Of a stretch of DNA of 54,140 bases, positions 15,116-36,184 are shown in pieces. The DNA is from Chloroflexota bacterium (GTDB lineage: Bacteria; Chloroflexota; Limnocylindria; Limnocylindrales; CSP1-4), in assembly GCA_031373765.1 (NCBI GenBank), contig JANMNF010000071.1, forward strand, positions 1-54,140, given 5' to 3'. Below the pieces are notes generated by a model. The model searched no databases. It was not told the DNA's origin and saw only the letters and a list, made by a program, of their open reading frames with translations. How positions within the stretch are numbered: the stretch's first letter is position 1; each line of letters opens with the position of its first letter. The position numbers were made by a program, and so were the translations under genes.

Positions 15116-15170
15116 TTGACGCGACAACTGGGCACGTGCTAGGTTACTGCAATCGGTTGCGCACGGTCAA
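15116..15170. promoter_or_regulatory. Bidirectional promoter with LacI-type operator (site D)
   Basis: Plus strand: TTGACG (15116-15121), 18 nt, TAGGTT (15140-15145), then operator CTGCAATCGGTTGCGCA (15147-15163). Minus strand: TTGACC (15170-15165), 18 nt that are the operator itself, then TAACCT (15146-15141). Confidence 0.65.
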
Positions 15171-15214: not shown

Positions 15215-16636
15215 TTGCGGATGCTCATCGCGGGTGAGTGGACAGACGGTGCTATCCGTGAAGACGTCACGAATCCGTTCAACGGCGACGTGATCGACAC
15301 GGTGCCGGTTGCGTCGCGGGCGGACGTTGATCGCGCGCTCGCAGCCGCGGTAGGGGCGGCCGACCGCCAGCGCCATACCGCAGCCTACGACCGTCAGGCG
15401 ATCCTGCTCCGCGCGGCCGACCTCGCGGACGAGCGGGTTGAGGATCTGGCTCGAACGATCTCGCTCGAGTCGGGAAAGCTCCTGACCGAGGCGACCGGCG
15501 AAGCCTCCCGGGCCGGCGACATGCTTCGTCTGGCTGCGTTCGAGGGCGCTCAGCTCTACGGCGACAGCCTCCCGCTCGACGCACACCGCGGCGCCGGGCA
15601 GGGTCGACTTGGTTTCACGCTCAGGCAGCCGTGTGGGGTGGTCGTCGCGATCACGCCATTCAACTACCCCTCGTTACTCGTCTTGCACAAGATCGCGCCT
15701 GCACTGGCCGCGGGTAACGCGGTCATCCTCAAGCCCGCGCGCAAGACGCCTCTGACGGCGCTCAAGCTTGCCGAGATTCTTCTCGACGCCGGCCTCGATC
15801 CCGAGGCGATCTCCTGTGTAACGGGCTCAGGAGCCGAACTCGGTGCGCAACTGTGTAGCGATCCGCGCGTGCGGAAGATCAGTTTCACCGGCAACTCGGC
15901 AACCGGCCAGGCGATCACCCGGGTTGCCGGAGTGAAGCGCCTGTCCCTGGAGCTCGGGGCCAGTTGTCCCGTCATCGTCCTGCCGGATGCCGACCTCGAA
16001 CTTGCCGCCAGGGCGGTCTCCATTGGCGGCTACGTGAACGCCGGTCAGGTCTGCATTTCGGTCCAGCGAGTCCTCGTCGACCGGACGGTCATGAGTGACT
16101 TCCTTGATGCGCTGACGCCGCTCGTCAAGGCGATCCGTACCGGTGATCCCCTCGATCCCCAGACGACGGTCGGCGTCCTGGTCAGCGATGTCGAGGCGCG
16201 GCGGGTGGAGCAGGCGATCAACGCGAGTGCCGCGGCCGGGTCGCGCGTGTTGGTTGGTGGCGAGCGCGAAGGAACGATGCTCCGGCCAGCCGTCGTGGCA
16301 GACGTCGATCCGGCGAGCCCATTCAGCCGCGACGAGCTATTCGGACCGGCCGTGGCCGTCTCACCGGCATCGGGAATGGACGACGCCATCCGACTTGCCA
16401 ACGACAGCCCGTACGGCCTCGGTGCCGGCGTCTTCACTCGAGACGTGACAAGCGCGCTGCGCTTCGCGCGGGAAGTGGACGCAGGTATGGTGCACATCAA
16501 CTGGACTCCGCTTTGGCGGGCCGATCTGATGCCGTACGGCGGCCTCAAGAACAGCGGAATCGGCAAGGAAGGCGCGCGCTCGGCGGTCGAGGAGATGACG
16601 GAGTCAAAGACGATCATCCTTCATGGAGCGAGCTGA
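15215..16636 (+). CDS. NAD(P)-dependent aldehyde dehydrogenase
   Basis: ALDH family: FNYPSLLVLHKIAPALAAGNAV, SFTGNSATG, catalytic LELGASCP and NAGQVCISVQR. The true start may be ATG 15221. Confidence 0.85.
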   Translation: MRMLIAGEWTDGAIREDVTNPFNGDVIDTVPVASRADVDRALAAAVGAADRQRHTAAYDRQAILLRAADLADERVEDLARTISLESGKLLTEATGEASRAGDMLRLAAFEGAQLYGDSLPLDAHRGAGQGRLGFTLRQPCGVVVAITPFNYPSLLVLHKIAPALAAGNAVILKPARKTPLTALKLAEILLDAGLDPEAISCVTGSGAELGAQLCSDPRVRKISFTGNSATGQAITRVAGVKRLSLELGASCPVIVLPDADLELAARAVSIGGYVNAGQVCISVQRVLVDRTVMSDFLDALTPLVKAIRTGDPLDPQTTVGVLVSDVEARRVEQAINASAAAGSRVLVGGEREGTMLRPAVVADVDPASPFSRDELFGPAVAVSPASGMDDAIRLANDSPYGLGAGVFTRDVTSALRFAREVDAGMVHINWTPLWRADLMPYGGLKNSGIGKEGARSAVEEMTESKTIILHGAS

Positions 16637-16654: not shown

Positions 16655-18553
16655 ATGCCCTCGACGGTCCGATTGACGACCGCGCAGGCGATCATTCGAT
16701 ACCTCGGCCGGCAGCACACCGTCGCGGACGGCGAGCGGGCGCGCTCCGTGCCGGCAATGCTCGGCATCTTCGGCCACGGCAACGTCGCCGGGCTCGGCCA
16801 GGCCCTCGATGAGTTCCGGGCAGAGATGCCATATGTTCAGGGCCGCAACGAGCAGTCTCTGGTCCACGTTGCGACCGCGTTTGCCAAGGCATCGCGCCGG
16901 CGGGCCGTGCTCGCCGTCACCGCGTCCGTCGGGCCGGGCGCCACGAACATGGTCACGGGTGCGGCGCTTGCCACGATCAACCGCCTGCCGGTGCTCCTGC
17001 TGCCCGGCGACACTTACGCCACTCGCCGCCAGGGTCCGGTACTCCAGCAGCTGGAGCACCCGTCCGCAGGCGACATCTCCGTGAACGACTGCTTCCGACC
17101 GGTGGCTCGCTACTTCGACCGGATCACGCGCCCGGAGCAGGTCCTTACGGCTCTGCCCGAAGCGATGCGAGTCTTGACAAACCCGTCCGAAATGGGTGCC
17201 GTGGTCATCGCCCTGCCGCAGGATATCCAATCAGAGGCGTACGACTATCCCGCAGCGTTCTTCGCGCCTGCCGACTGGGTCATCGCGCGCCCAGCTCCGG
17301 ATCTCGAGGCCGTGGCCGCGGTGGCTCACCTACTCGCCGAGGCCCATCGCCCGCTGATCGTGGCCGGAGGGGGCGTCCACTACTCCGAGGCTGGGGAGGC
17401 GCTGGCAGGGCTTGCGGGGGAGTTCGGGATCCCTGTTACCGAGACGTTTGCCGGCAAGGGCGCTGTGGAGACCGATGCCTGGTGGGGCATGGGTGGCATT
17501 GGCGTGGAGGGAAATCCGGCGGCAAACAAGCTCGCCGCCGAGGCCGATCTCGTCCTTCACGTGGGCACGCGCCTGACGGACTTCACGACTGCCTCCCAGT
17601 CCATCTTCGCGGATCCTGCGGTCCGATTCGCCTCCATCAACGTGACCGACCATGACGCGCGCAAGCAAGGTGCCCTGCCAATCGTCGCCGACGCTCGTCG
17701 GGCGCTGCTGGCGCTCGTTACCGCGGCACGGGATGCGGGTGTCCGGCCACGGCCCACGTGGGAGGCACGCGCTCGGGAAGTCAAGTCTGCCTGGCTGCCG
17801 ACGCGAGCTGTGGCCCTCGCCGCCCCGGGGCCGGACCGGTTCGGCGGGGAAAGCCTAATGACGCAGGGCCAGCTGATTGGGATCCTCCAGGATGCGGCCC
17901 GGCCGGGTGACACGATCGTCGCTGCCGCTGGCGGACCCCCCGGCGACTTGCTCAAGGTCTGGGACGCGACCGGCGGCAGGTCGTGCCACCTCGAGTTCGG
18001 GTATTCGTGCATGGGCTATGAGCTTCCGGCGACCCTCGGGGTACGCCTTGCCCAGCCCGACGGCGCGGTGATGGCGCTGATTGGCGACGGGACGTTCCTC
18101 ATGCAGCCGACCGAACTGGTCACTGCCCTGCAGGAAGGTCTGAACGTGACGGTGGTGGTCTCGGAGAACCACGGCTTCCAGGTCATCCGGCGTCTTCAGT
18201 TGATGCGCAATGGCGCGGGATTCGGGAACGAGTTCCGCGGACGAACCGGGCCGCTCGCGACTGGCGCGCTGGATGGCCCATACCTCGATCTCGACCTCGT
18301 TGCCCTGGCTGCCGGGCTTGGGGCACGGGCCACCAGGGCCGGAACGCCGGACGCTATCCGTACCGCTCTGGAAGAGGCCCGGTCCCACCCCGGTCCGAGC
18401 GTCATCGTCGTCGCGACGGATCCCGACGTGAACTTGCCGTCCTCGGGCGTGTGGTGGGATGTCGCTTCGGCCGAAGTGTCGGACGTGACGGCCGTGGCGG
18501 AGCGACGACGCGAATACGAGGCAGGGCTCGCCAGTCAGCGATGGCATGGCTGA
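16655..18553 (+). CDS. iolD: IolD paralog 1: ThDP-dependent 3D-(3,5/4)-trihydroxycyclohexane-1,2-dione acylhydrolase
   Basis: VRLTTAQAIIRYL...IFGHGNVAGLGQAL...GPGATNMVTGAA...IGDGTFLM. The length (632 aa) and N-terminus are typical of IolD. Confidence 0.85.
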   Translation: MPSTVRLTTAQAIIRYLGRQHTVADGERARSVPAMLGIFGHGNVAGLGQALDEFRAEMPYVQGRNEQSLVHVATAFAKASRRRAVLAVTASVGPGATNMVTGAALATINRLPVLLLPGDTYATRRQGPVLQQLEHPSAGDISVNDCFRPVARYFDRITRPEQVLTALPEAMRVLTNPSEMGAVVIALPQDIQSEAYDYPAAFFAPADWVIARPAPDLEAVAAVAHLLAEAHRPLIVAGGGVHYSEAGEALAGLAGEFGIPVTETFAGKGAVETDAWWGMGGIGVEGNPAANKLAAEADLVLHVGTRLTDFTTASQSIFADPAVRFASINVTDHDARKQGALPIVADARRALLALVTAARDAGVRPRPTWEARAREVKSAWLPTRAVALAAPGPDRFGGESLMTQGQLIGILQDAARPGDTIVAAAGGPPGDLLKVWDATGGRSCHLEFGYSCMGYELPATLGVRLAQPDGAVMALIGDGTFLMQPTELVTALQEGLNVTVVVSENHGFQVIRRLQLMRNGAGFGNEFRGRTGPLATGALDGPYLDLDLVALAAGLGARATRAGTPDAIRTALEEARSHPGPSVIVVATDPDVNLPSSGVWWDVASAEVSDVTAVAERRREYEAGLASQRWHG

Positions 18554-19524
18554 TGACTGAGCGTGGGCCCATCCTGGCGCTCGGTCCGATCGATGACGTC
18601 GTGGTGGACCATCTCCGCCCCTTCGGTGATGTCATCGAAGTGGGCGCAGGCGACGTGTCAATAGCCGACCTCCTGCCGATGGCCATCGGCCTGATCGCAC
18701 GCGGTAGCAGCGTTGTCGACCGTCAGGTCATCACCGCCGCAGGAAACCTGCGCGTTATTGGAAGGAGCGGGATCGGGGTCGATCTCGTCGATCTCGCAAG
18801 CGCGAGCGAGCGGCGTATCCCCGTGGTCGTGACGCCGAACGCCGGCACGAACGCCGTGGCGGAGGGGGCGCTGGCGCTCATCCTGCACCTCGTCAAGAGG
18901 CTCGGGCCGCTCACCGAGCTGGTTCGCGAGGGTCGCTGGGCCGAGCGTGAATCGGTCGACGTAGGCGATCTTGAGGGTGCGACGCTCGGGATCGTCGGCT
19001 TTGGCCGGATCGGGCGGCGGCTCGCTGAGCTGGGCGGTGCTCTCAACATGAGCGTCGTGGCATTTGACCCGTATGCGGATCCGCTCACGGCATCTGGGTT
19101 GGGCGTCGATCTGGTCGACCTCGATCGACTTGCCGAGACCGCCGACGTAATCAGCCTCCACGCCCCTCTTACCGCCGAGACGACGCACCTCATCGATGCC
19201 GCCGTCCTGGATCGGGTTCGTAGTGGCACCGTTCTCGTCAACTGTGGGCGCGGTGGCTTGCTGGATCTGGACGCAGTCCATGCGGCGCTGCTTGATGGGC
19301 GCCTGGCCGGGGTGGGTCTCGATGTCTTCGAACCGGAGCCTCCGCCGCCCGGCGGGCATCCGATCTTCCAGCACCCAGCCGTGGTCCTCACGCCCCACGT
19401 ACTCGGCCTGTCCCGACGGGCCAAACGCCGGATATTCCAGGAAATGACCGACGGAATGGCGTCCGTCCTCGCCGGCGGACGCGCCATGAACATCGCCAAT
19501 CCGGAGATCTACGACGAGGCCTGA
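18541..19524 (+). CDS. D-isomer-specific 2-hydroxyacid dehydrogenase
   Basis: GIVGFGRIGRRLA Rossmann motif, RIPVVVTPNAGTNAVAE, NCGRGGLLD, TPHVLG. The start is ATG 18541 or ATG 18553 (the latter overlaps the iolD stop). Confidence 0.8.
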   Translation: MAWLMTERGPILALGPIDDVVVDHLRPFGDVIEVGAGDVSIADLLPMAIGLIARGSSVVDRQVITAAGNLRVIGRSGIGVDLVDLASASERRIPVVVTPNAGTNAVAEGALALILHLVKRLGPLTELVREGRWAERESVDVGDLEGATLGIVGFGRIGRRLAELGGALNMSVVAFDPYADPLTASGLGVDLVDLDRLAETADVISLHAPLTAETTHLIDAAVLDRVRSGTVLVNCGRGGLLDLDAVHAALLDGRLAGVGLDVFEPEPPPPGGHPIFQHPAVVLTPHVLGLSRRAKRRIFQEMTDGMASVLAGGRAMNIANPEIYDEA

Positions 19525-19553: not shown

Positions 19554-20558
19554 TCAGGGCGTGATGATGATCTTGGTGGCCTGACCTGATCGTAGCTGTG
19601 CGACCCCATCGAGGACCTCGCTCAGGGGCAACACGGCCGACACGATTGGTGCGAGGTTGAGGGTGCCGCTCTCCACGAGGCGAATGGCGGCCGGAAACGT
19701 GAAGTTCGAGATGTAAGAGCCGAGAATTGACAGCCCCTTCTCGGTGATCTCGACCTGATGGATCGGCGGACGCGCCGCTCCGTTCATCCCGAACACGATA
19801 ATCCGCCCGCCCATCCCGGCGGCCTCGATAGCGGGACCGAGGACGCTCCCAACGGCATCGACCACAATGTCGGCGCCACCGGGCAGGATTTCATGGCGCC
19901 GGGCGGCGAATTCGTCCGGCGTGAAGGTGAAGTCCGCCGCGACGGCTTTCGCAACGGCGGCCCTGACAGCGTTCGGCTCGATCACGATGACCGGCCCGGC
20001 GCCCGAGGCTTTGAACACCGCCGCGAACAGACACCCGATCGTGCCGGCACCGATGACGACCACGGATTCTCCTGGTCTGGCGGCCGCTCGATTTGTCCCG
20101 TTCACTACACACGCAAGCGGCTCCACGAGAGCCGCCATCTCGAGTGGTACGTCCTCTGATATCGGGTAGACGGCCGCCGCGGGCGCAATCACGAATTCGG
20201 CAAATGCACCATCCCTGTAGACTCCGAGCGCGCGGATGTTTTCGCAGTTGGCAGGCCGGCCGGCGCGACAGGATGTGCAGGCATTGCACTTCGGATCCGG
20301 GTCGACGACGACGCGCTGACCGACACCGACGCTCGTCGCCGCCTCGCCGACAGCGGTGACGCGGCCCACGAACTCGTGCCCGAGGATTGTGCCTGGCGTC
20401 GCCGGATGACCCGGAGGGACATTGAGGATCTGGAGGTCACTCCCGCACATCCCGCACGCCTCGATGGCGATGAGGACATCATCCGCCTGCTCGACTTGCG
20501 GGCTCGGGCGGTCCTCGAGGCGCAGTTCGCCGTTACCGTGAAAGACGGCGGCACGCAT
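19554..20558 (-). CDS. Zinc-dependent medium-chain alcohol/polyol dehydrogenase
   Basis: ATG at 20558. CGMCGSDL, GHEFVGRV and the structural-Zn cysteines CNACTSCRAG, plus VIGAGTIG Rossmann motif. 334 aa. Confidence 0.85.
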   Translation of the reverse strand: MRAAVFHGNGELRLEDRPSPQVEQADDVLIAIEACGMCGSDLQILNVPPGHPATPGTILGHEFVGRVTAVGEAATSVGVGQRVVVDPDPKCNACTSCRAGRPANCENIRALGVYRDGAFAEFVIAPAAAVYPISEDVPLEMAALVEPLACVVNGTNRAAARPGESVVVIGAGTIGCLFAAVFKASGAGPVIVIEPNAVRAAVAKAVAADFTFTPDEFAARRHEILPGGADIVVDAVGSVLGPAIEAAGMGGRIIVFGMNGAARPPIHQVEITEKGLSILGSYISNFTFPAAIRLVESGTLNLAPIVSAVLPLSEVLDGVAQLRSGQATKIIITP

Positions 20559-21418
20559 CACGTTCCCCTTCGTTTCATCAGACGTCGACCGACTCGCAGG
20601 ACGAGACCGGAGCCAAAGAGCAGGGCGACTGTCGAGAGGAGCAGCACCGTCGCGACGGCGTTCACCTCGGGTGTGACCCCAAACTTGATCTGCGTATAGA
20701 TATACAACGGGAGCGTGACCTGTGGTCCAACGGTAAAGAACGTAATGATGAACTCGTCGATCGAGAGCGTCACGCTGATGAGAGCGCCGGCCACGATCGC
20801 GGGCGAGATGAGCGGCAGGATCACGTGGCGCAACGCCTGGCGCGGGCTGGCTCCGAGGTCGGCCGCCGCCCACTCGAGGCGGTGATCGAAGCCCTGGAGC
20901 CGCGCGGCGACGATCAGGACCACGAACGGCGTCGTGAATACGAGGTGGCCGGCAATCACCGTCAGGAGCGACAGCTCGAGGTCCAGAACCCGACGGAAGA
21001 AGATGAGCATCGCGATGCCCAGGAGGATCCCGGGCAGCATGATCGGCATCGTCGCCAGGATACGGACAGCGTCGGGGTGGCGGATTCCGCCACGGACCAG
21101 AGGGAACGCGGCCATCGTTCCGATCAGGGTCGCCAGGAATGCGACGGCTGCAGCGACGATGATCGAGTTCTTGACCGCCTCGAGCAGCAAGCTGTTGCCT
21201 GCCGCTACTTCGTACCAATGCAAGGTGAGATTGACGATCGGGAGACCTGGGGTGCGCGGCTCGTTGAATGAGAACAGGACGAGGAAGGCGATCGGCACGT
21301 AAAGGAAGACGAGCACGGCGACCGCCCAGAGCCAGAGGACCCAGCGCGTGGGCCGGGCATACGGGCTGACGGGCATCGTCTCCAGCGGATCGATCTGCTT
21401 ACCCACGAGCCACGACAT
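20558..21418 (-). CDS. ABC transporter permease (PotC-like)
   Basis: Six TM segments. EAA-type loop WAAADLGASPRQALRHVILP. Alternative start at 21376. Confidence 0.8.
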   Translation of the reverse strand: MSWLVGKQIDPLETMPVSPYARPTRWVLWLWAVAVLVFLYVPIAFLVLFSFNEPRTPGLPIVNLTLHWYEVAAGNSLLLEAVKNSIIVAAAVAFLATLIGTMAAFPLVRGGIRHPDAVRILATMPIMLPGILLGIAMLIFFRRVLDLELSLLTVIAGHLVFTTPFVVLIVAARLQGFDHRLEWAAADLGASPRQALRHVILPLISPAIVAGALISVTLSIDEFIITFFTVGPQVTLPLYIYTQIKFGVTPEVNAVATVLLLSTVALLFGSGLVLRVGRRLMKRRGT

Positions 21419-22319
21419 CCTCTAGCCGGAGGTACTTGCGGAAGACGACCAGGAGAGCCGTGACGAACACGGCGATGATGATCGCGAACGCCGCACCTTG
21501 AGCGATCTGCGCGCCCCGGAAGAAGTTCACCACCAGATTCGCGATGAGGGAGCCCTGTACGCCGCCTACAAGCGTTGGCGTCAGGAACTCACCCAGAATC
21601 GGGATGAACATGAAAATGCAGGCGGTGATGATCCCGGAGCGAATCTGCGGCACGAGGATGTGCCTAAATGCCTGATCAGGCCGCGCGCCGAGGTCCTGGG
21701 CGGCGTGCAACTGGCTGAAGTCGAACTTCTCGAGCGCTGCGTAGAGTGCCAGCGCGGCGAATGGGAAGTAGACGTAGACAAGAACGATGAACACCCCGAC
21801 GTCGTTGTAGACGAACAGGCGCGACGGTTCGTCGAGGATGCCGACTGCCTGGAGGGCCTGGTTGAGCGCGCCCCGCTCTCCAAGAATCGCCTGCCACGCA
21901 TAGACACGCAGGAGATAGCTCGTCCAGAAGGGCACGATGACCGCGAGCAGGACCAATCGCTGCCGCCGGCGGCTGACGTACCGGACGAGGAAGTAGGTGA
22001 ACGGCACCGCCGCGCCCAGGCCGGCGGCCGTCACCGCCGTTGCCATGAGCATCGTCTTGATGAACGTTCGAATGTAGGTCGGGACGGTGAAGAACTTCAG
22101 GTAGTTATTGAGGTTCCATTCCGGAACCAGATTGAAATCGACGTCGGTTCGCCAGAAGCTGAAGACGACCATGAACGCCATCGGCGCGATGAACAGGAGG
22201 AACAGCGCGATCGCGCCCGGGATGGCGGGTGCGATCCGTCCAAAAGAGCGCGATGGTGCCGCCGATCCGGGCTGGACCAGCGGCACCTCGTTCAGGCTGA
22301 CGCCTGAGGTCTGGTTCAT
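21399..22319 (-). CDS. ABC transporter permease (PotB-like)
   Basis: EAA-type loop HAAQDLGARPDQAFRHILVPQ. Six TM segments. Confidence 0.8.
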   Translation of the reverse strand: MNQTSGVSLNEVPLVQPGSAAPSRSFGRIAPAIPGAIALFLLFIAPMAFMVVFSFWRTDVDFNLVPEWNLNNYLKFFTVPTYIRTFIKTMLMATAVTAAGLGAAVPFTYFLVRYVSRRRQRLVLLAVIVPFWTSYLLRVYAWQAILGERGALNQALQAVGILDEPSRLFVYNDVGVFIVLVYVYFPFAALALYAALEKFDFSQLHAAQDLGARPDQAFRHILVPQIRSGIITACIFMFIPILGEFLTPTLVGGVQGSLIANLVVNFFRGAQIAQGAAFAIIIAVFVTALLVVFRKYLRLEDVVARG

Positions 22320-22345
22320 GGGTGAGGCCGGTTCCCTGACTTCGG

Positions 22346-23464
22346 TCAGGCTCCGAACACCTCGTTGAACGCGTCGATGGCGCCCTGCGTCGATGACCCA
22401 GGGCCCTTGAGGGTCATGGTGTTGACCGTCTCGGGCTTGTTGTAGAGGAACCGGTCAGCGCGGTCCTTCTGGCCCTTGTCCACGAGCAGCTTGTAAGCGG
22501 CCTCGTTGAACAGCGGCCGGCCATACCGGATGAAGTTCTCGGCAATGTGCTCGGCCTGCTCGGCAACTTCCAGGAACGGCTTGAGCAAACTGTTGTTCTT
22601 GCCGCCCTTGACCAGCATCTCCGCGTCCATCCAGCCGACGGTCCCCTCCTTCGGGGTGAAGCCGATGATCTCGGGTCCGCCACCCTCCTTGACCCTTTCC
22701 TCGGCTCCCAGGTTACCGGTCGCGATCCACGCCTCTTCGTTGATCAACGACGTGATGGTCTCCGTGTTCTGTTGGGTCAGTTTGAGGAGGTTCGGCTTGA
22801 GGAGCGTGAGCATCTCCTTTGCCTGCGCAAGCTCCTCATCGGTCATGTTGTAGGGATCCTTGGCGCCGGCGAACTTGGCCATGTAGGCGACAATCTCGAC
22901 CGGCTGGTTCTCGACAACGATATGACCCTTGTACTTGGGGTCGAGCAGCACCTCCCACGAGTCGGGCGGCGTCGTGACGTACTTCGGGTTGTAGTAGAGC
23001 TGGACCGGGGACCAGCCGAACGGATAGCCCAGGTAGCCCTCGGGCTTCTTCCAGATCGAGAAATCGCGCGCGATCGAGTAGAGCTGCTTCGCGACCTGGA
23101 GCTCGTTGATGTCCCAGGCTTCGATGAGACCGTCCTCGAAGTACTTCGGCACCCACAGCGCATCGCCGGAGATCATGTCGAGCTGTCCGCCGACTTCCTT
23201 GACTTTCGTGTAGCCCTCGGAGTTGTCGGCAAGCTCGGTGATGCTCGTCTTGAGCTCCTGGTCCTTGGCGATCGCGGCGAGCTGTTCGTCGTAGTAGTGA
23301 TCGCTCCAGGTCATCCAGTTGAACGTGCCCTTGGTGCTCCCGCCACCGCCGCCGGTAGTACAGGCAGCGGCCAGGCCCCCAAAGGCCACTACGCCACCCA
23401 TGGCTGCCGACGCCTGCAAGAAGCGACGCCGGGATAGATTGTTGTACCTCGCCATTTGATCCAT
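22346..23464 (-). CDS. Periplasmic/lipoprotein substrate-binding protein of a Pot-type (polyamine-like) ABC importer
   Basis: ATG at 23464. Twin-arginine-like LSRRRFLQ followed by lipobox LAAC. The body resembles PotD/PotF-family binding proteins. Confidence 0.75.
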   Translation of the reverse strand: MDQMARYNNLSRRRFLQASAAMGGVVAFGGLAAACTTGGGGGSTKGTFNWMTWSDHYYDEQLAAIAKDQELKTSITELADNSEGYTKVKEVGGQLDMISGDALWVPKYFEDGLIEAWDINELQVAKQLYSIARDFSIWKKPEGYLGYPFGWSPVQLYYNPKYVTTPPDSWEVLLDPKYKGHIVVENQPVEIVAYMAKFAGAKDPYNMTDEELAQAKEMLTLLKPNLLKLTQQNTETITSLINEEAWIATGNLGAEERVKEGGGPEIIGFTPKEGTVGWMDAEMLVKGGKNNSLLKPFLEVAEQAEHIAENFIRYGRPLFNEAAYKLLVDKGQKDRADRFLYNKPETVNTMTLKGPGSSTQGAIDAFNEVFGA

Positions 23465-23466
23465 CG

Positions 23467-24564
23467 CTATGTCCTCGCTTCCGATCCTGCCATGACGATC
23501 GCCGCTGTTGTTGACCACCAGACGCCTACCTCCTCGTCGACATGCCCCTCCGGATCCTGAGACTCAACGTCACCTCCATGAAGTCGATGCACGACGAGGG
23601 CACCTGCCGCCGTGCCGACCGTAACTCGAGTGTGATTCCCCAAGAACGCCATGCCCAGGACTCGTCCCCGAATCGCCGTCGCAGGCGCGCGTTCAATCGG
23701 CGCGATGACGAGCGATTCCGGCCGCAACATCAGCGTCGCGGGTCCATCGATTGCCGTGTCAGGAGCGGGTATCCGCTCCCTGCCTGCGACGAGGAACCAC
23801 GTCTGCAGATCCTCGTGCCGGATCACTCCCTCGATGAAGTTGGATTCGCCGATGAAATCCGCCACGAACCGATCCACGGGCTGGTAATAGACGTCACGCG
23901 GCGTTCCGATCTGGCTTACACGCCCGCCCGACATGACGGCGATGCGCGTTGACATCGAGAGTGCTTCTTCCTGATCGTGCGTGACGAACACGAACGTCGT
24001 GCCAACCTGGCGATGAATCCGCGCGAGTTCAAGCTGCATCTGGTGACGCAACTTGAGGTCAAGTGCGCCCAGGGGCTCGTCGAGAAGGAGTACCGCCGGC
24101 CGTCGTGCCAGCGCCCGAGCCAGCGCGACACGCTGCTGTTGGCCACCCGACAGCTGGGACGGAGCCCGCTGTGCGTGGTCGAGGAGGCCAACGAGATCCA
24201 GGTACTCATCGACCCTCTGACCGACTTCGGCCTTGTTGAGGCCGGCCATGCGCAACCCGAACTCAACGTTCTGGGCCACCGTCATGTGCGGAAATAGGGC
24301 GTAACTCTGGAACACGGTGTTCACGTTCCGCTTGTGGGGCGGCAGGTCATTGACTCGGCGCCCCTCGATCCGCAGCTCTCCGGAACTGAGCGGGATGAAG
24401 CCGCCGATAAGGTTGAGGGTCGTGGTCTTGCCACAGCCGGACGGCCCGAGGAGACAGAAGAACTCGCCGGGTTCGATCTGGAGCGAGACGCCATCGAGCG
24501 CCACGACGTCACCGTAGCGCTTTGTCGCGTCGATCAGCTCGATGGCCGGCTGGGGCTCAGTCAT
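23467..24564 (-). CDS. ABC transporter ATP-binding protein (PotA-like)
   Basis: ATG at 24564. Walker [10 protein letters not shown], signature [15 protein letters not shown], Walker [12 protein letters not shown], and a C-terminal TOBE-like domain. Its start overlaps the lacI-family stop. Confidence 0.9.
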
Positions 24565-25624
24565 GGGCGGCCCCCCCGGCAGCCTGAGAAGCGCGGGAGC
24601 GCGTGCTCTCACGGATGGCCAGCTCAACGGGCAGCACAACGGCCTCCGGCAATTGTCCCGACCGGATCGCATCGACGAGTGAGGAAGCGGCCAGACGTCC
24701 AAGTTCAGTGAGCGGGGTGACCACGGTCGTGAGGCGAGGATTGGACATCTCCGCGAAAGGGATGCCGTCGAAGCCCACCACCGCGACGTCGTCGGGGACA
24801 CGCACGCCGAGCACCCGGAGGGCATCCATCAGGGCGAGGGCCAGCATGTCGTCGTAGCAGATCAGGGCCTCCGGAAGGTCGGCGGCAATCAGTGCGGCGG
24901 TAGGTGCCGGTGTGAGCCAGCCGTCATCCGGGCTCGGGTAGCGATCTGTCCGATGAGCGATTCCGTGCTTCTTCAGCGCCCGCTCGACCGCTTCTCGACG
25001 GACCGTGCTCGATACCAGGCCGCCGCTGCCGACGTACGCGATGTCGCGGCGCCCAGTCTCAACGAGATGATCAACGATCGCCTCAACACCGCTGGCGTCA
25101 TCGGTCAGAATCAACGACGGCTTCGCGAGCCCGGTATCTGGTCCCATCAAACGCTGATCAGGCAGCACGAAGATCATCCGGTCCGGCCGCGCATGCGACC
25201 GGGCTTCGTCGATGGTCATCACGCCGGAGACCACGGCGATCCCGTCAACCGCCTGCTCCGTGAAGACGCGAAGAACGTCCCGCTCCAACGTTGCATCCTG
25301 CATGCCGGTACCAACGATGACTCGATAGCCGCCGGCCAACGCCTCCTGCTCAAATGAGGCCGCAATCTGTCCGTGGAACGGGTCGCTGAGGTCCGGAATG
25401 AGCAGTCCCAGGATCCGGGTCCGTCTTGCGCGGAGGCCGCGCGCTGCGGCGTTCGGGACATACCGCAACTCGACCGCAGCAGCCTTGACGGCGTCGCGCG
25501 TCGGCTCGCTGATCCGTGGGTCGTCCACCAATGCGCGAGACGCGGTCGACCGAGAGACGCCGGCCATTCGGGCGACGTCCTCGAGGCCGACGCGGCGATG
25601 CGGAGTCGGGTCATCGAGAGCCAT
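24557..25624 (-). CDS. LacI-family transcriptional repressor
   Basis: N-terminal HTH VGLEDVARMAGVSRSTASRALV...YVPNAAARGLR plus a periplasmic-binding-protein-like sugar-binding core. Confidence 0.9.
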   Translation of the reverse strand: MALDDPTPHRRVGLEDVARMAGVSRSTASRALVDDPRISEPTRDAVKAAAVELRYVPNAAARGLRARRTRILGLLIPDLSDPFHGQIAASFEQEALAGGYRVIVGTGMQDATLERDVLRVFTEQAVDGIAVVSGVMTIDEARSHARPDRMIFVLPDQRLMGPDTGLAKPSLILTDDASGVEAIVDHLVETGRRDIAYVGSGGLVSSTVRREAVERALKKHGIAHRTDRYPSPDDGWLTPAPTAALIAADLPEALICYDDMLALALMDALRVLGVRVPDDVAVVGFDGIPFAEMSNPRLTTVVTPLTELGRLAASSLVDAIRSGQLPEAVVLPVELAIRESTRSRASQAAGGAAHD

Positions 25625-25641
25625 GGGTTCGCTTCATCCGC

Positions 25642-26874
25642 TCACGACAGGTATCTCGAGGCCACGGTTCGGAACGTTTCTGCCCGTTCATGCGCGGTGG
25701 CCTCACCGTCACGCATCCGTAGCCCAAACGGAGCCAGATTCGGATCCTGGACGCCGATCGAGAAGCTCATGGATCGCTCGAGGAGCCGGTCTGTGACAGG
25801 GAGCATGCCAGCCCTGTAGGCGGCCGGCCGGTCATCACTGCATGAGCAATCGAACGGACATCCTCGACCGGTGATGGTGCGTCCCGTGAGGACGTGCTCC
25901 ATGTGGTGGTACACGTGCCAGCCGGATGCCGCCAGCGTGATCGAACCCAGTTCGGCGGTTACAGCGGTAGCGGTCGCGGCGTCGGGAAAGACGACAACGA
26001 GATGCGTGGCGAGGTCGCCGTCCGGGTCTGGCAGCGTTCGGAAACTGATCCCCGGGATCCCTTCGATAACGCTCCGCACGATGTCCCGGTTGGCACGCAG
26101 GTGGTCACGTATTCGATCAAGCCTGCGGACCTGGGCGAGCAGGACGGCCCCTTGAAGTTCGGTCATCCGGAAGTTCAAGCCGAGAAATGGCCGATTGCCG
26201 ACCTCGATGCCACGCCGGTTTGGACTGTGTCCCTGATCGTGCATCGCGAACGCGCGCCGGTAGAAGGCCTCGTCGTCGGTGATGAGCATGCCGCCGTCGC
26301 CACAGGTGATCGTCTTGAACTCGTTGAAGCTGAAAACCCCGGCATCCGCGTGGCCTCCGACCCAACGGCCCCGATAGGTGGCCCCGAACGCCTGCGCAGC
26401 ATCCTCGATGAGCGGCAGCGAGTGGCGCGCCGCGACCGCTTTGAGTTCATCGAGTCGAGCCGGATTGCCCAGCATGTGGACGACGACGATTGCCCTGGTG
26501 CGCGATGTGATCCGCGCCTCGACGTCGGCCGGGTCGAGGTCGAATGACTCGTCGATTTCGGCCAGGACCGGCCGGGCGCGCGCATAGATCACCGAGCTGA
26601 TCGTGGCGACGAAGGTAAAGCCGGGGACGATGACCTCGTCGCCCGGTCCGATTCCGAGTCCGACCAGTGCCAAATACAGGCCGCTCGTGCCTGAATTGAG
26701 GGCCAGCGCGTACTTCGTCTGGGAGAGATCCGCGACGAGTTCCTCGAACCGGCGCACCTTGGCTGGAAACGTGTCGTCGTCGGGTCCGTAGCGCGCGAGG
26801 TGCCCGCTGGCGAGGACTTCGGCCACCTCGGCCAACTCCTCTGGCCCGAGGAGATCGAGTCCTGGACCCGGCAT
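25642..26874 (-). CDS. DegT/DnrJ/EryC1/StrS-family PLP aminotransferase (scyllo-inosose-type aminotransferase candidate)
   Basis: GDEVIVPGFTFVATI, and FSFNEFKTITCGDGGML holding the PLP lysine. ATG at 26874 is preceded by GGGAAGGGG. The track ORF starts at TTG 26883. Confidence 0.8.
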   Translation of the reverse strand: MPGPGLDLLGPEELAEVAEVLASGHLARYGPDDDTFPAKVRRFEELVADLSQTKYALALNSGTSGLYLALVGLGIGPGDEVIVPGFTFVATISSVIYARARPVLAEIDESFDLDPADVEARITSRTRAIVVVHMLGNPARLDELKAVAARHSLPLIEDAAQAFGATYRGRWVGGHADAGVFSFNEFKTITCGDGGMLITDDEAFYRRAFAMHDQGHSPNRRGIEVGNRPFLGLNFRMTELQGAVLLAQVRRLDRIRDHLRANRDIVRSVIEGIPGISFRTLPDPDGDLATHLVVVFPDAATATAVTAELGSITLAASGWHVYHHMEHVLTGRTITGRGCPFDCSCSDDRPAAYRAGMLPVTDRLLERSMSFSIGVQDPNLAPFGLRMRDGEATAHERAETFRTVASRYLS

Positions 26875-26895
26875 TTCGTGCAAGCCCCTTCCCAG

Positions 26896-26944
26896 TGCGC
26901 AACCGATTGCAGGGACGGTAGCATCCGGACCAGACGGGCGTCAA
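26896..26944 (-). promoter_or_regulatory. Internal promoter with LacI-type operator (site A) upstream of the aminotransferase gene
   Basis: Minus strand: TTGACG (26944-26939), 18 nt, TACCGT (26920-26915), 2 nt, then operator CTGCAATCGGTTGCGCA (26912-26896). The ATG follows at 26874. Confidence 0.6.
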
Positions 26945-27012
26945 GAAGCGCTTCGCGATGTGTCCCAGCGCGGGGCCGTCGCAGGTGGGTCCTGCAGCGC
27001 GAGGGTGCCCCG

Positions 27013-27855
27013 TTATTCGGCGGGAGGCTCTCCTCCGACTGGGATCGCGACAGGCTTGCCAGCCCAGTCTTCGGCCACCCAGATGTAGGCCGGATCAAAT
27101 TTCTGGGTCACTGGTCGCACGTCCCCGCCGAGGAAGTTGAGGTAATAGGCGTTGGTCCCGGGAGCAGTCGCGACCGTGTGATAGCCCTCGTGGACGAGGA
27201 TCAGATCCCCATCCCGTGCGCAGAAGGAGAGATCGAGGTCACCCTCGGGCGAGTAGATCCGCTGGTAAGCGAAGCCGTCACGAGGCTGGAGACGAAAGTA
27301 GTAGGTCTCCTCGTGATACGAGGTCCCATCCTTGCCGTCATGACGGTGAGGCGGAAAGCTCGACCAGTTGCCGCTCGGGGTGATGATCTCGTACGCGATC
27401 AGTCGCTCCGCCGGAAGGCTCAGATCCAGGGTGCCGGTCACGCCTCGGCTGACGTTCGCACCTCCACGGACAGCAGTCGCGAGCTCCGCCGGAGTGATCA
27501 GCCGCGCCGGGTAGCGCCCTTCCGCAGGCACCCCGCCGGTCGCGAATTCGAACGGTGTGATCGCCGTGATCGCATATGCCGTCCGCGGCGGTAGGTAGGC
27601 CACATGCGGCAGGTCGGTGAAGACGTCGCGTCGCGAGACCGTGTGGTCCTGGCCGGCAAACTCGAAGCGCGCAGTCCCCGCGAGCGGGACCAAGGCAACC
27701 TCATTCGGCCCGCTTTCGGCCCGCAGTCGTTCGCCCGCCGCGAGGGCCACGACGCTGGACGAGACGTATTTCCAGTCGACGGTCTCAGGCGTGATCTCGA
27801 GCAGCGTGCCTGGGCCGGCGGCCGAGACCAGATGCCGGAGCGGTTTCGTGGTCAT
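27013..27855 (-). CDS. iolB: 5-deoxy-glucuronate isomerase IolB
   Basis: GNWSSFPPHRHD...EETYYFRLQP..GFAYQRIY...VHEGYHTV.APG..AYYLNFL is the cupin signature of IolB. Confidence 0.85.
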   Translation of the reverse strand: MTTKPLRHLVSAAGPGTLLEITPETVDWKYVSSSVVALAAGERLRAESGPNEVALVPLAGTARFEFAGQDHTVSRRDVFTDLPHVAYLPPRTAYAITAITPFEFATGGVPAEGRYPARLITPAELATAVRGGANVSRGVTGTLDLSLPAERLIAYEIITPSGNWSSFPPHRHDGKDGTSYHEETYYFRLQPRDGFAYQRIYSPEGDLDLSFCARDGDLILVHEGYHTVATAPGTNAYYLNFLGGDVRPVTQKFDPAYIWVAEDWAGKPVAIPVGGEPPAE

Positions 27856-28799: not shown

Positions 28800-29689
28800 T
28801 CGGGGCCGCCTGGGGCATCGATGTCCAGCTCGAGGCGGGCAGCCTCCAACTCGTCGGAGGTCGGGACGCGAGCGTGCCAACCATGCTGACCCTCGGTGAA
28901 GGACAGGCCTCGCCCCTTGATCGTCCGTGCCAAAATCGCCGTCGGCCGACTGTCCGGGGTCGCCTCGGCCGCCGCTGCGCACGCGCCGATGATGGCGCCG
29001 AAATCGTGGCCGTCGATTTCGATCACCCGCCAGCCGGATCCCTCGAACATGGCGCGCAGCATGCCTCCAGGGAATGGCTCACTGCGGTCACCGCGAGCAC
29101 CGGGCTCGTCCTGGAGCGACCAGCCGAATTGTTGGAGGCCGTTGTCATCGACGATCACAATCAGGTGGCCCAGTCGATAGCGAGCAGCCACAAGCGCTGA
29201 CTCCCAGACCATTCCCTCCTGACACTCGCCGTCACCAAGCATCACGTAGGTGTGGAAGTCACGACCTCGGAGCCGTGCCCCGAGTGCGATCCCGACCCCC
29301 ACCGCAAGGCCCTGCCCGAGCGATCCGGTGGACGCGTCGAGTCCCGGCAGGCGGGTCATGTCCGGATGGCCCTGCAGCCGCGAGTCACCTTTGTCGAACG
29401 TGGCTAGCTCCTCAATCGGGAAATAGCCGCGTTGAGCCATCACCGCGTACAGACCCACGGCCGAGTGGCCTTTCGACAGGATGAACCGGTCGCGGTCGGC
29501 CCAATCGGGATCCTCGGCGCGGATTTCCAGCACCCGGAAGTACAGAGCGACCAGCAACTCCATCGCCGACATCGGCCCGCCGACATGGCCGGCCCCACTT
29601 CCGGTCACCGTACGCATCACGAGCCAGCGACCCAGTCGCGCCCGAGCCTCGAGGTCGGCGTGCGGAGAGGGCTCGCTCGCCTTCGTCAC
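28796..29689 (-). CDS. Transketolase, N-terminal (ThDP-binding) subunit
   Basis: GTG 29689 overlaps the iolD stop (GTGA). GHVGGPMSAMEL...SKGHSAVGLYA...GSLGQGL...LGDGECQEGMVWE. 297 aa. Confidence 0.85.
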   Translation of the reverse strand: MTKASEPSPHADLEARARLGRWLVMRTVTGSGAGHVGGPMSAMELLVALYFRVLEIRAEDPDWADRDRFILSKGHSAVGLYAVMAQRGYFPIEELATFDKGDSRLQGHPDMTRLPGLDASTGSLGQGLAVGVGIALGARLRGRDFHTYVMLGDGECQEGMVWESALVAARYRLGHLIVIVDDNGLQQFGWSLQDEPGARGDRSEPFPGGMLRAMFEGSGWRVIEIDGHDFGAIIGACAAAAEATPDSRPTAILARTIKGRGLSFTEGQHGWHARVPTSDELEAARLELDIDAPGGPE

Positions 29690-31566
29690 CCGAGTCGCTG
29701 CCGGGAACGTGCCTGGTCGTACCCGTCGCGCGCCGCCCGGATCCCCGGCTGGGCGCTCACCTCGGCTGCGGGAACGTCCCACCATCCCTCGAAGCCGGGA
29801 ACGCGCTGCTCCGGATCGACAGGCACGACGATGACCGTGACTCGATCGGCCCGTTCGGCCTCGGCGAGCGCGGCATGCAATTCGGCAGCCGTGCGGGCGA
29901 AGATGGCCAGGGCGCCCATCGCCTCCGCGTGCTGCCGAAAGTCCACTGGCACGTACGGCCCTGTGAGGCGGTTGCGGGCCTTGTCGCGGAAGCGAAGGTC
30001 GTTCCCGAAGTCGGGCACGCCGACCGAGCGCGCGAGGCCCGTGATGCACCCGAATCCGTGGTTGTCGAGGAGGACGATGGTGAATTTCAGGCCCTCCGCG
30101 ACCGCTGTCACGATTTCCGAGTTCATCATCAGGTACGACCCGTCACCGACGATCACGGCCACCCGTCGCTCGGGTTCCGCAAACGCCACGCCGAGCCCTG
30201 CGGCGACCTCGTAACCCATGCATGAGTAGCCGTACTCCACGTGGTACGACTTCGGGTCCTCAGCGCGCCACAGTTTGAGTAGGTCACCGGGGAGGCTCCC
30301 GGCGGCGCAGATCACCGTGGCCTTGCCTCCGAGGGCGTCGTTGACGATGCCGATCACCTCGGCCTGACCGAGATCCGCGTCCTTCGGGCCTTCCGCCCGG
30401 AGGGCCGTCACGATGCCGTCCCACTCCACCTTGAGCTGCCCGATCCGCGCGCGGAATGCCTCGTTTGTGCCTCGATAGCCCGCGGCATCGAGTGCGGTCG
30501 AGAGTGCGGCGAGGGCCTCGCGCGCATCGGCGACAAGCGGGATCGCCCGCAGCTTGTGGGCGTCCATGGGCGTGACGTTGACCCCGACGAACTTGACGTC
30601 GGCGTGCTGGAACGTGGTTCTCGACGACGTGACAAAGTCGCCCATTCGGGTACCAACACACAGGACCAGATCTGCTTCGCGGGCAAGGTGATTCGCGGCC
30701 AGGCCCCCATTCGCGCCGATCGGACCCACCATCATCGGATGGTTCCAGGGCAGGGCGCCCTTCCCCGCCTGCGTCTCGGCAACCGGGATGTTGAACCGCG
30801 ACGCAAGGGCGTCGAGTTCATGGGTCGCCTCCGAGTAGATGGTGCCGCCACCGGTGATGATCACCGGCGTCTTCGCTCGCATCAGAAGCTGAACCACCTC
30901 GGCGACGACCGAAGGTTCCGGAACCGGCCTGCGAACCCTCCAGATCCGACGCTCGAAGAACGATTCGGGCCAGTCGAACGCCTCGCTCTGGACGTCCTCC
31001 GGCAGCGACACGGTCACGGCGCCGGTCTCTGCCGGGTCGGTCAGCACGCGGAATGCCTCGGGTAGGCTGGCGATCAGTTGGTCGGGACGTGAAATCCGGT
31101 CGAAGAACCGGGACACTGGCCGGAATGCGTCACTCGCGCTGACATCGTGCTCGCTTGGATGCTCGACCTGTTGCAGGACGGGATCCGAGGACCGGTTGGC
31201 GAAGTAGTCGCTCGGAAGGAGCAGGACGGGGACGCGGTTGACGGTCGCTGCAGCGGCGCCCGTGATCATGTTTGTGGCGCCGGGACCAATCGACGACGTG
31301 CAGGCGAAGGTCTGGAGACGGTTCCGATGGCGCGCGTACGCCGCAGCAATGTGGACCTGCCCCTGCTCGTTCTGGGGTCGGTAGTACGGCATCTCCTCCG
31401 CGTCGCCGAGCTCCTCGAGGGCCTGCCCGAGGCCGGCGACATTGCCGTGTCCGAAAATCCCCCAGACGCCGGCAATGAAGCGCTGTTGCCGGTCGTCACG
31501 CTCCACGTACTGCTTGGCCAGGAACCGGACGACGGCCTGGCCGGTGGTCAGTCGAACAGTCGTCAT
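29686..31566 (-). CDS. iolD: IolD paralog 2: ThDP-dependent trihydroxycyclohexane-1,2-dione acylhydrolase
   Basis: VRLTTGQAVVRFL...IFGHGNVAGLGQALEE...GPGATNMITGAA...VGDGSYLM. 626 aa. Confidence 0.85.
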   Translation of the reverse strand: MTTVRLTTGQAVVRFLAKQYVERDDRQQRFIAGVWGIFGHGNVAGLGQALEELGDAEEMPYYRPQNEQGQVHIAAAYARHRNRLQTFACTSSIGPGATNMITGAAAATVNRVPVLLLPSDYFANRSSDPVLQQVEHPSEHDVSASDAFRPVSRFFDRISRPDQLIASLPEAFRVLTDPAETGAVTVSLPEDVQSEAFDWPESFFERRIWRVRRPVPEPSVVAEVVQLLMRAKTPVIITGGGTIYSEATHELDALASRFNIPVAETQAGKGALPWNHPMMVGPIGANGGLAANHLAREADLVLCVGTRMGDFVTSSRTTFQHADVKFVGVNVTPMDAHKLRAIPLVADAREALAALSTALDAAGYRGTNEAFRARIGQLKVEWDGIVTALRAEGPKDADLGQAEVIGIVNDALGGKATVICAAGSLPGDLLKLWRAEDPKSYHVEYGYSCMGYEVAAGLGVAFAEPERRVAVIVGDGSYLMMNSEIVTAVAEGLKFTIVLLDNHGFGCITGLARSVGVPDFGNDLRFRDKARNRLTGPYVPVDFRQHAEAMGALAIFARTAAELHAALAEAERADRVTVIVVPVDPEQRVPGFEGWWDVPAAEVSAQPGIRAARDGYDQARSRQRLG

Positions 31567-32706: not shown

Positions 32707-32755
32707 TTGCGCAACCGATTGCAGAACGGTAGCATCGGCCAAAGGCGCACGTCAA
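32707..32755. promoter_or_regulatory. Bidirectional promoter with LacI-type operator (site B)
   Basis: Plus strand: TTGCGC (32707-32712), 17 nt, TAGCAT (32730-32735). Minus strand: TTGACG (32755-32750), 18 nt, TACCGT (32731-32726). The operator TGCGCAACCGATTGCAG lies at 32708-32724. The two -10 boxes overlap by 2 bp (ACGGTAGCAT). Confidence 0.65.
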
Positions 32756-34999: not shown

Positions 35000-35048
35000 T
35001 GTGCATTCGGTTGCATGGACGCTAGCATTGTCCCAGGAACGACGTCAA
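35000..35048. promoter_or_regulatory. Bidirectional promoter with a degenerate LacI-type operator (site E)
   Basis: Operator variant TGTGCATTCGGTTGCAT (35000-35016). Minus strand: TTGACG (35048-35043), 18 nt, TAGCGT (35024-35019). Plus strand: TAGCAT (35023-35028). The overlapping -10 layout is the same as at site B (ACGCTAGCAT). Confidence 0.5.
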
Positions 35049-36155: not shown

Positions 36156-36184
36156 TTGCGCAACCGATTGCAGGGCGGTAGGAT
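36156..36184 (+). promoter_or_regulatory. Promoter with LacI-type operator (site C)
   Basis: TTGCGC (36156-36161), 17 nt, TAGGAT (36179-36184). Operator TGCGCAACCGATTGCAG at 36157-36173. GGAG (36208-36211) lies 8 nt before GTG 36220. Confidence 0.6.

Follow-up and report, generated by a model that had tools for sequence, protein, structure and literature searches.

Within a 54,140-nucleotide contig of a Chloroflexota bacterium of the class Limnocylindria (contig JANMNF010000071.1 of assembly GCA_031373765.1; this whole stretch is called the window below), seven genes at positions 19554-26874 encode an aminotransferase of the DegT family, a repressor of the LacI family, an ATP-binding cassette (ABC) importer resembling the polyamine transporter PotABCD, and a zinc-dependent dehydrogenase. 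They share an operator with the surrounding genes of the iol type, that is, of inositol catabolism, a textbook pathway. On balance we think it probable that the seven genes form a feeder module, by which a cyclitol bearing an amine (a compound of the inosamine type, or a conjugate) is taken up and transaminated into the reactions of IolE and IolD. The reading draws on the gene content and structure of the operon, the shared operator, conserved synteny, co-occurrence across genomes and the residue pattern in the pocket of the binding protein. The source genome is metagenome-assembled, has a size of 2.6 Mb and is 92% complete.

An operon that shares its operator with inositol genes

Profile searches and translations placed all seven genes on the minus strand, at the coordinates given in an earlier note on this DNA (Table 1). 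The junctions between them overlap or measure at most 26 bp, and the genes are therefore taken to form one operon; the start of the ATPase gene overlaps the stop of the LacI gene by 8 nt, and the start of the Zn dehydrogenase gene overlaps the PotC stop by 1 nt. The operon proposed in the earlier note thus exists, and its catabolic character is supported by the importer and the repressor being encoded together. Read by eye on the minus strand, the gap in front of the aminotransferase gene contains a TTGACG-18 nt-TACCGT element and the ribosome-binding site GGAAGGGG; a strict sigma-70 consensus scan called no promoter in this gap.

A 14-bp palindrome, TGCAAYCGRTTGCA, was found five times in the window when up to two mismatches were allowed. 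By chance 0.38 matches are expected, and none of 100 shuffled sequences reached five. All five sites lie in promoter gaps of iol-type transcription units, which confirms the claim of the earlier note that the operon is under the same operator as the IolD, IolB, IolE-like and IolG-like genes. The 12-bp core of the operator has just two extra matches in the whole assembly, both within long coding open reading frames (ORFs). These two were dismissed as chance matches, and because they are intragenic the regulon seems to be confined to this island. The window genes scanned include only one transporter of the regulon, the Pot-like system, and no second LacI-type regulator was seen elsewhere in the window. 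In most of the related loci described below the operator is located 30-50 bp before the start of the aminotransferase gene, and it is also present before the hydrolase and IolD genes.

Conserved gene context and distribution

Related loci were collected with one genome per species. Eighty loci were returned, 73 of them with the aminotransferase; their genes were called by codon log-odds, with the window as training set, and were then clustered, after which the recurrent families were annotated. The most frequent neighbour of the aminotransferase is a metallohydrolase of 868 amino acids (aa), present in 40 of the 73 loci, followed by IolD (37), IolG-like dehydrogenases (33), LacI (31, following the aminotransferase), the IolE1-like TIM barrel (29, and the closest neighbour, at a median distance of 100 bp), an F420-type luciferase-like monooxygenase (LLM) family oxidoreductase (25), the binding protein and the ATPase (22), the permeases (18-19) and IolB (18). 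The Zn dehydrogenase gene either follows PotC or flanks the aminotransferase gene.

Several architectures were observed. The arrangement of the window is recurrent. In another type the aminotransferase gene is located between iolD and iolC-iolB-iolJ; in a third, the gene of an IolE-like protein is divergent from an aminotransferase-IolG2-LLM unit, with IolD, an HpcH aldolase, an SMP30 lactonase and the hydrolase in the flanks; and in a fourth the Zn dehydrogenase gene is divergent from that of the aminotransferase, beside a 2-oxoacid-dehydrogenase complex and a Pot-like importer. The large type-B loci contain IolD and the IolE-like gene and have no IolB within 10 kb. Both between locus types and between three phyla, synteny is maintained with the metallohydrolase, IolD and the IolE-like gene. 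No recurrent nucleotidyltransferase or glycosyltransferase family was found in the related loci, and genes for 3-deoxy-D-manno-octulosonate (Kdo) or lipopolysaccharide (LPS) were found neither in the window nor in the 73 loci.

An even sample of 151 Limnocylindria genomes, each at least 80% complete, contained the aminotransferase in 11, IolD in 59, the metallohydrolase in 9 and the binding protein in 10 genomes. All 11 genomes with the aminotransferase also have IolD. The aminotransferase accompanies the binding protein in 8 of 10 genomes and the hydrolase in 8 of 9, and these are the identical eight genomes, from four genera, in each of which the aminotransferase, binding protein, hydrolase and IolD genes lie together within about 25 kb. 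Since the genomes are kin, these co-occurrence counts are descriptive and no statistical test is attached to them. The IolD count includes three unpublished genomes (G102, G122 and G167), all positive for IolD and negative for the aminotransferase; without them it becomes 56 of 148 and nothing is altered.

Ten IolD loci from genomes that lack the aminotransferase consist mostly of canonical IolG-IolE-IolC-IolD-IolB sets. No match to the binding protein or the permeases of the window was found in these ten loci; where examined, they contain a CUT1-type transporter, or another SBP_bac_6 protein with a fused permease. The aminotransferase, the importer, the Zn dehydrogenase and the hydrolase thus form an accessory set on top of ring-cleaving inositol catabolism. 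In locus L089 an inositol-monophosphatase gene was observed beside the CUT1 transporter.

The importer and its binding protein

The ATPase just passes the cut-off of the potA subfamily model TIGR01187 (358.1 versus 355.6 bits), and stays below that of the PotA equivalog (368 versus 482). The best NCBIfam models for the permeases are PotB (166 bits, cut-off 348) and PotC (204 bits, cut-off 326). The binding protein scores 41 bits for PotD (cut-off 582) and 32 for PotF (cut-off 636), and with 19-21% identity to these proteins it is a distant relative; its homologues are automatically annotated as spermidine/putrescine-binding protein. An SRRRFLQ motif for twin-arginine translocation (Tat) and an LAAAC lipobox mark it as an exported lipoprotein. 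In its AlphaFold2 (AF2) model, which has a mean predicted local distance difference test score (pLDDT) of 81, the fold is close to that of the polyamine receptors: the top 30 Foldseek matches, PotD, PotF and SpuD/E among them, have template-modelling (TM) scores of 0.7-0.88, and the model superposes best on PotD, PotF and SpuD/E (TM 0.75-0.88), with YdcS, AfuA and MotA lower.

The pocket was compared by aligning 22 family members (21 loci and the window) with Escherichia coli PotF and PotD, whose sequences came from the K-12 record. All 22 members retain the PotF residues W37, D39, E185 and D278 and the aromatic residue of position 276, and S38 is S or G. Four other contact residues have been changed (Y40 to H, S85 to D, W244 to N and Y314 to R) and D247 falls in a gap, so that of the PotF contact positions six are kept and five changed. 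Judged from this alignment, the pocket is compatible with an amine ligand, and not with an unchanged polyamine site; the pattern agrees with a compound that carries one or more protonated amines and whose body is polar and hydroxylated instead of an aliphatic chain. The earlier note had predicted an amine-type binding protein from its family. The kept acidic and aromatic residues of PotF and PotD are in line with that prediction, but membership of SBP_bac_6 is in itself weak evidence, because an iol locus that lacks the aminotransferase contains another SBP_bac_6 protein, with none of the kept clamp residues. That protein is encoded in an otherwise canonical iol locus (L092:1869-5761) together with a fused double permease, a layout like that of AfuA/FbpB.

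The Zn dehydrogenase, whose gene ends the operon, shows both zinc-site motifs in its translation. IolM is its best NCBIfam model (207 bits, cut-off 450), Tdh follows with 187 bits, also below its cut-off, and its PDB matches are 4ej6 and Tdh.

The aminotransferase

The aminotransferase matches PF01041 with 278 bits (cut-off 19.8), over positions 4-289 of the 360 profile positions. Since the match stops at position 289, the C-terminal part of the protein is considered atypical. The Schiff-base lysine K187 lies in FNEFKTITCGDGG, which corresponds in the alignment to the lysine motif found in KdnA and perosamine synthetase; together with D158 and Q161, which contact the pyridoxal 5'-phosphate (PLP) cofactor, it is invariant in 10 of 10 orthologues. 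The closest solved structure is KdnA of Shewanella oneidensis (PDB 5k8b), with 272 bits and an E-value of 5.6e-80 over residues 4-373 of 410. Other solved relatives include perosamine synthetase (190 bits) and ArnB (163 bits), and none but KdnA scores above 191.

The earlier note had pointed out that the DegT family includes the scyllo-inosose and 2-deoxy-scyllo-inosose aminotransferases. A special kinship with these is not supported: the 2-deoxy-scyllo-inosose aminotransferases 5w70 and 2c7t score 165 and 134 bits, against 272 for KdnA and 160-190 for enzymes acting on nucleoside diphosphate (NDP) sugars, the comparison being made with these two solved structures. The check suggested in the same note, placement among StsC/BtrS-like enzymes versus sugar-nucleotide enzymes, puts the protein in neither group of solved structures, as KdnA clearly outscores both.

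Metagenomes contain plentiful orthologues at 60-92% identity, nearly all of them exactly 410 aa long; in the more than 120 clusters at 72-92% the length is 410 aa throughout. The homologues are automatically annotated as dTDP-4-amino-4,6-dideoxygalactose transaminase; three further DegT genes, more typical ones, are present in the same genome. In a quick maximum-likelihood tree the orthologues form a tight family, with internal branches of 0.1-0.3 changes per site versus more than 2 for outgroups at 40-48% identity, and the sub-clades follow the locus type. A tblastn search against plasmids retrieved relatives at 35-48% identity only, in unrelated, biosynthetic or unannotated contexts (Embleya, Roseibium and Sinorhizobium).

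A G-x-G-C-P-F-D-C motif is invariant in the family, and a C-terminal I-G-V-x-D-P-N-L-A-P segment is conserved (residues about 336-343 and 373-389, respectively; window positions 25750-25860, minus strand). Neither has a counterpart in the KdnA alignment. They could represent a metal or disulfide site, or a clade-specific lid of the active site.

Other genes of the island

Table 1. Position of the operon and of the other annotated features in the window.
Feature	Position	Strand	Remarks
IolE1-like gene	14129-15058	minus	operator beside it, 15148-15161
Aldehyde dehydrogenase	15215-16636		
IolD1	16655-18553		
D-2-hydroxyacid dehydrogenase	about 18550-19524		
Zn-dependent medium-chain dehydrogenase	19554..20558	minus	IolM-, threonine-dehydrogenase- and polyol-dehydrogenase-like; ADH_N + ADH_zinc_N
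ABC permease, PotC-like	20558..21418	minus	BPD_transp_1; start uncertain (21418, 21406 or 21376)
ABC permease, PotB-like	21399..22319	minus	BPD_transp_1
Substrate-binding protein	22346..23464	minus	Tat-exported lipoprotein, PotD/PotF fold, altered pocket; SBP_bac_6
ABC ATPase, PotA-type	23467..24564	minus	with TOBE domain; TIGR01187
LacI-family repressor	24557..25624	minus	PF00356 (helix-turn-helix) + PF13377 (Peripla_BP_3)
KdnA-like DegT-family PLP aminotransferase	25642..26874	minus	410 aa; PF01041, 278 bits
Promoter/operator gap, iolB to aminotransferase gene	26875..27012	minus	138 bp; operator at 26898-26911
Co-directional operon upstream	from 27013	minus	IolB 27013-27855, IolD2 29686-31566, transaldolase-like gene, split transketolase; operator 32710-32723
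IolG1, levoglucosan-dehydrogenase-like	32799-34004	plus	
IolE2, TIM barrel	34031-34972	minus	
IolG2	35074-36132	plus	operator 35002-35015, between IolE2 and IolG2
CehA/McbA-type metallohydrolase, 868 aa	36220-38826	plus	operator 36159-36172, before the gene
IolE3, TIM barrel	38823-39701	plus	
IolG3	39698-40729	plus	
F420-type LLM oxidoreductase	40726-41742	plus	
Fused trehalose-6-phosphate synthase/phosphatase	46446-48671	plus	
Selenocysteine genes SelA and SelB	48187-52256	plus	

The NCBIfam equivalog cut-offs are passed by IolD2 and IolD1 (888 and 786 bits, cut-off 715) and by IolB (238.8 bits, cut-off 205). IolG1 is most similar to levoglucosan dehydrogenase, a 3-keto-forming enzyme (285 bits), and its gene is paired with that of a TIM-barrel protein. 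No PfkB or DeoC/LacD gene was found among the window genes scanned, the search for IolC and IolJ being limited to the window. The split transketolase and the transaldolase-like gene share a transcript with IolD2 and IolB and occupy the usual place of the IolC kinase and the IolJ aldolase; in related loci of another type IolC and IolJ are kept.

The metallohydrolase is cytoplasmic. Residues 481-802, in its C-terminal half, form a CehA/McbA metallohydrolase domain (NF038032, 140 bits, cut-off 80), and its N-terminal half is beta-rich. The AF2 model is mediocre, with a pLDDT of 64 and a poor catalytic domain, and with this model Foldseek returned only matches to beta-sandwich domains, at a TM score of about 0.1. 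In genome G109 the protein is split into two ORFs near residues 461/477.

Super-islands of about 45 kb occur in some Limnocylindria; they contain two orthologous paralogues of the aminotransferase, with about 78% and 66% identity to that of the window (loci L029 and L045, about 1.5 kb apart on one contig, L011 and L048, and L014 and L055). A third, very divergent DegT gene (37-40%) lies immediately after iolB in these super-islands, and beside the aminotransferases lie an E1/E2 set of a 2-oxoacid dehydrogenase and a gene for a putative cyclase/formamidase. In sponge symbionts of the Acidimicrobiia (Spongiisociaceae; L023, L024, L034, L037, L039, L077 and L078), orthologues at 64-71% identity are preceded by a gene for a UPF0182 protein or a phosphoenolpyruvate-utilising enzyme and followed by one for an EamA-type transporter, in some loci with an LLM oxidoreductase gene between and in others with a class-III aminotransferase beyond; no iol genes were found within 10 kb of them. 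In a further group (L019, L040, L041, L044 and L049) the aminotransferase gene is flanked by a DUF4432 (aldose-epimerase-like) gene and by that of a Peripla_BP_4 binding protein of the ribose or inositol type, with a proline-racemase-family gene upstream.

Proposed function and alternatives

In the mechanism that we propose, the Tat-exported lipoprotein would capture the protonated amine of the compound through an acidic and aromatic clamp of the PotF/PotD type, and the polar residues that replace those packing against an aliphatic chain would touch the hydroxyls of the ligand. Import would proceed through the PotABC-like transporter. In the cytoplasm the 868-aa metallohydrolase would probably take off a substituent first, and the KdnA-like aminotransferase would pass the amino group to a 2-oxo acid, giving a keto-cyclitol (an inosose). 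The Zn dehydrogenase may tune the oxidation state or the stereochemistry at a neighbouring carbon or, in the case of a diamine, prepare a second transamination. An IolE-like dehydratase would then act on the product, IolD would open the ring, and IolB and the downstream enzymes would follow. The LacI protein encoded in the operon would repress its own operon and four more promoters via TGCAAYCGRTTGCA until the compound, or an early intermediate, is present. What we infer here is the class of the substrate, which way the transamination runs, and what the Zn dehydrogenase and the hydrolase do.

In favour of such a feeder module is the observation that the aminotransferase is found only in genomes that also hold IolD, and most often beside IolD and the IolE-like gene. 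Several points weigh against it. The inosose and 2-deoxy-inosose aminotransferases (134-165 bits) are no nearer to the enzyme than the NDP-sugar enzymes (160-190 bits), and KdnA acts on the terminal aldehyde of a linear sugar acid and not on a ring ketone. The IolE- and IolG-like genes of the island score under the equivalog cut-offs (IolG3 305 versus 355, IolE1 152 versus 290). A pocket mapping made on an alignment at 19-21% identity cannot name the ligand, and the invariant arginine in the pocket could point to a carboxylate. Five of the eight genomes that contain the full set belong to one genus, so the co-occurrence counts come from related genomes, and the host is an uncultured soil bacterium. 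Finally, a simple scyllo-inosamine substrate does not explain the roles of two conserved members of the set, the Zn dehydrogenase and the metallohydrolase. Since plain scyllo-inosamine requires neither of them, we hold the aminocyclitol class to be the probable substrate and scyllo-inosamine as the specific compound to be doubtful. The metallohydrolase, which is the strongest partner of the aminotransferase and had been missed by the earlier note, suggests a conjugated or modified amine over plain inosamine.

The similarity to KdnA, which is by far the nearest solved relative and aligns end to end, would also agree with a linear compound that bears a terminal amine (an amino-deoxy sugar, a sugar acid or an amino-polyol), converted from CH2-NH2 to CHO by KdnA-type chemistry. 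The resulting aldehyde would join the pathway at or after IolB, as a uronate resembling 5-deoxyglucuronate, or go to the Zn and aldehyde dehydrogenases, and IolD would be a mere neighbour in the regulon. The position of the operon directly downstream of iolB, the Zn polyol-type dehydrogenase in the module and the arginine at the place of PotF Y314, which could hold a carboxylate, are consistent with this. However, the links of the aminotransferase to IolD and to the adjacent IolE-like gene (37 and 29 of the 73 loci) exceed that to IolB (18), and in the large type-B loci the former two occur without IolB nearby; a linear substrate is therefore rather unlikely, in our view. We rate as somewhat less probable still a conjugate of inositol with an unacetylated amino sugar or another amine, e.g. 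glucosamine-inositol from mycothiol, or head groups from glycosylphosphatidylinositol (GPI) or glycosylinositol phosphorylceramide (GIPC). Here the metallohydrolase and IolG1/IolE2 would cleave the conjugate, the aminotransferase would deaminate the part that is not the cyclitol, and inositol would go to IolG3, IolE, IolD and IolB. The co-occurrence of aminotransferase, binding protein and cytoplasmic hydrolase in the identical eight genomes, the likeness of IolG1 to a 3-keto-forming dehydrogenase with a TIM-barrel partner, and the score of IolG3, close to that of a true inositol 2-dehydrogenase, fit this route, but the loci showed no recognisable gene for a glycoside hydrolase or for amino-sugar catabolism, the hydrolase model was poor, and its fold search was uninformative. 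At about the same low probability we place degradation by the regulon of an aminoglycoside-type core (2-deoxystreptamine or streptamine), or of a carbamoyl or guanidino form of it opened by the CehA/McbA-type hydrolase. The biosynthetic sequence of aminotransferase, Zn-dehydrogenase and aminotransferase would run in reverse, and the deoxy-inosose would be oxidised to trihydroxycyclohexane-1,2-dione and cleaved by IolD. The islands of related genomes with two or three aminotransferase paralogues fit such a multi-amine substrate, and if this were true, abundant soil Limnocylindria would be consumers of antibiotic cores.

Very unlikely, we think, is a simple neighbourhood, in which an importer of polyamines and an aminotransferase that acts on NDP-sugars for the cell envelope just happen to adjoin inositol genes. 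It is what the automatic annotations of both homologue families would imply, and the ATPase does pass the polyamine potA subfamily cut-off, if barely. The operator is shared and conserved, however, the three partners IolD, IolE-like gene and metallohydrolase stay in synteny over locus types and three phyla, and the distribution of the aminotransferase is strictly nested in the IolD genomes. Moreover, the binding protein is far below the PotD and PotF cut-offs and has five altered pocket positions, NDP-sugar genes are absent from the loci, and the source genome holds other, typical DegT genes. Least probable of all appears the biosynthetic direction, in which an inosamine would be made from an inosose, as by MosB, for use as a solute or natural product. 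The scyllo-inosose:glutamate transamination of the MosB type is reversible chemistry, by which DegT-family enzymes interconvert inosose and inosamine (PMC6668481), and in the sponge symbionts the orthologue lies beside an EamA-type transporter with no importer. Against this stand the co-transcription with a binding-protein-dependent importer and a repressor, in the window and in about 20 other loci, the co-regulation with the ring-cleaving IolD, and the lack of tailoring or export genes.

To our knowledge, use of rhizopine, an inosamine, has been described for a few rhizobia only, by way of their moc genes. If the proposed uptake and transamination of an aminocyclitol is correct, the operon would provide a second, unrelated route of amino-cyclitol consumption, within the iol regulon of a globally common uncultured soil class, and the first catabolic role for this clade of aminotransferases. 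The binding protein, the aminotransferase, the repressor and the operator are clonable targets, which could serve to identify amine-bearing cyclitols circulating in soil, to build biosensors for such compounds, and to mend the automatic labels of the binding protein and the aminotransferase.

Comparison with known systems

KdnA is the 8-amino-3,8-dideoxy-D-manno-octulosonate transaminase, a biosynthetic enzyme (for Kdo8N of LPS) with KdnB as partner dehydrogenase. The aminotransferase of the window shares with it the KTITCG(D/E)GG lysine motif and would share a free substrate, one that is not nucleotide-linked (the function of KdnA is taken from the title of PDB 5k8b). Unlike KdnA it belongs to a catabolic operon under repressor control, which also encodes an importer and a Zn-dependent medium-chain dehydrogenase, and it has the extra conserved C-terminal segment and the CPFDC motif. 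As its neighbours are LacI, the importer, the Zn dehydrogenase and iol genes, and not those of Kdo or LPS synthesis, we regard it as a relative and not an orthologue of KdnA. MosB (of rhizopine synthesis) and the BtrR/RbmB/StsC-type enzymes belong to the same Pfam family and are biosynthetic, and the reaction proposed here would run in the opposite direction.

With PotABCD and PotFGHI of E. coli the importer shares the transporter architecture, the fold and the clamp residues (W37, S38, D39, E185, position 276 and D278). It differs in that the binding protein is a Tat lipoprotein, in being regulated with iol genes instead of polyamine genes, and in the pocket (Y40H, S85D, W244N, Y314R and the loss of D247). 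The island resembles the canonical iol systems of the Bacillus subtilis and Corynebacterium type (IolG-E-D-B-C-J-A) in having IolD, in two copies, IolB, IolE- and IolG-like genes and control by a repressor. Added to these are the aminotransferase, the amine-type importer, the Zn dehydrogenase and the metallohydrolase, and a transaldolase and a split transketolase stand at the place of IolC and IolJ. Literature searches brought up no account of a DegT aminotransferase taking part in the catabolism of inositol, and they yielded nothing relevant on scyllo-inosamine catabolism, on 2-deoxystreptamine degradation or on iolD/iolB with transketolase.

The moc system comprises a ribose-binding-type binding protein (MocB), a regulator of the GntR-aminotransferase-fold type (MocR) and an oxygenase (MocDEF), and is not known to include a DegT transaminase. 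In the window a binding protein of the PotD/F fold, LacI, a DegT transaminase, the Zn dehydrogenase and a CehA/McbA-type hydrolase are found instead; only in another type of locus is the aminotransferase followed by a Peripla_BP_4 protein. The operon does differ from the moc system, as the earlier note had held: its regulator is a LacI protein, its binding protein is of the SBP_bac_6 family, and Rieske or ferredoxin genes were not seen among the window genes scanned. The rhizopine catabolism locus of Sinorhizobium meliloti, mocCABRDEF (cited in PMC6668481), is the bacterial system known to consume scyllo-inosamine-type compounds, a use like that proposed for the operon; it has an IolE-like protein (MocC) and a dehydrogenase of the GFO/IDH/MocA family, and it depends on inositol catabolism. 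The operon thus looks like a functional counterpart of rhizopine catabolism, a front end to the iol pathway built with none of the specific parts of moc.

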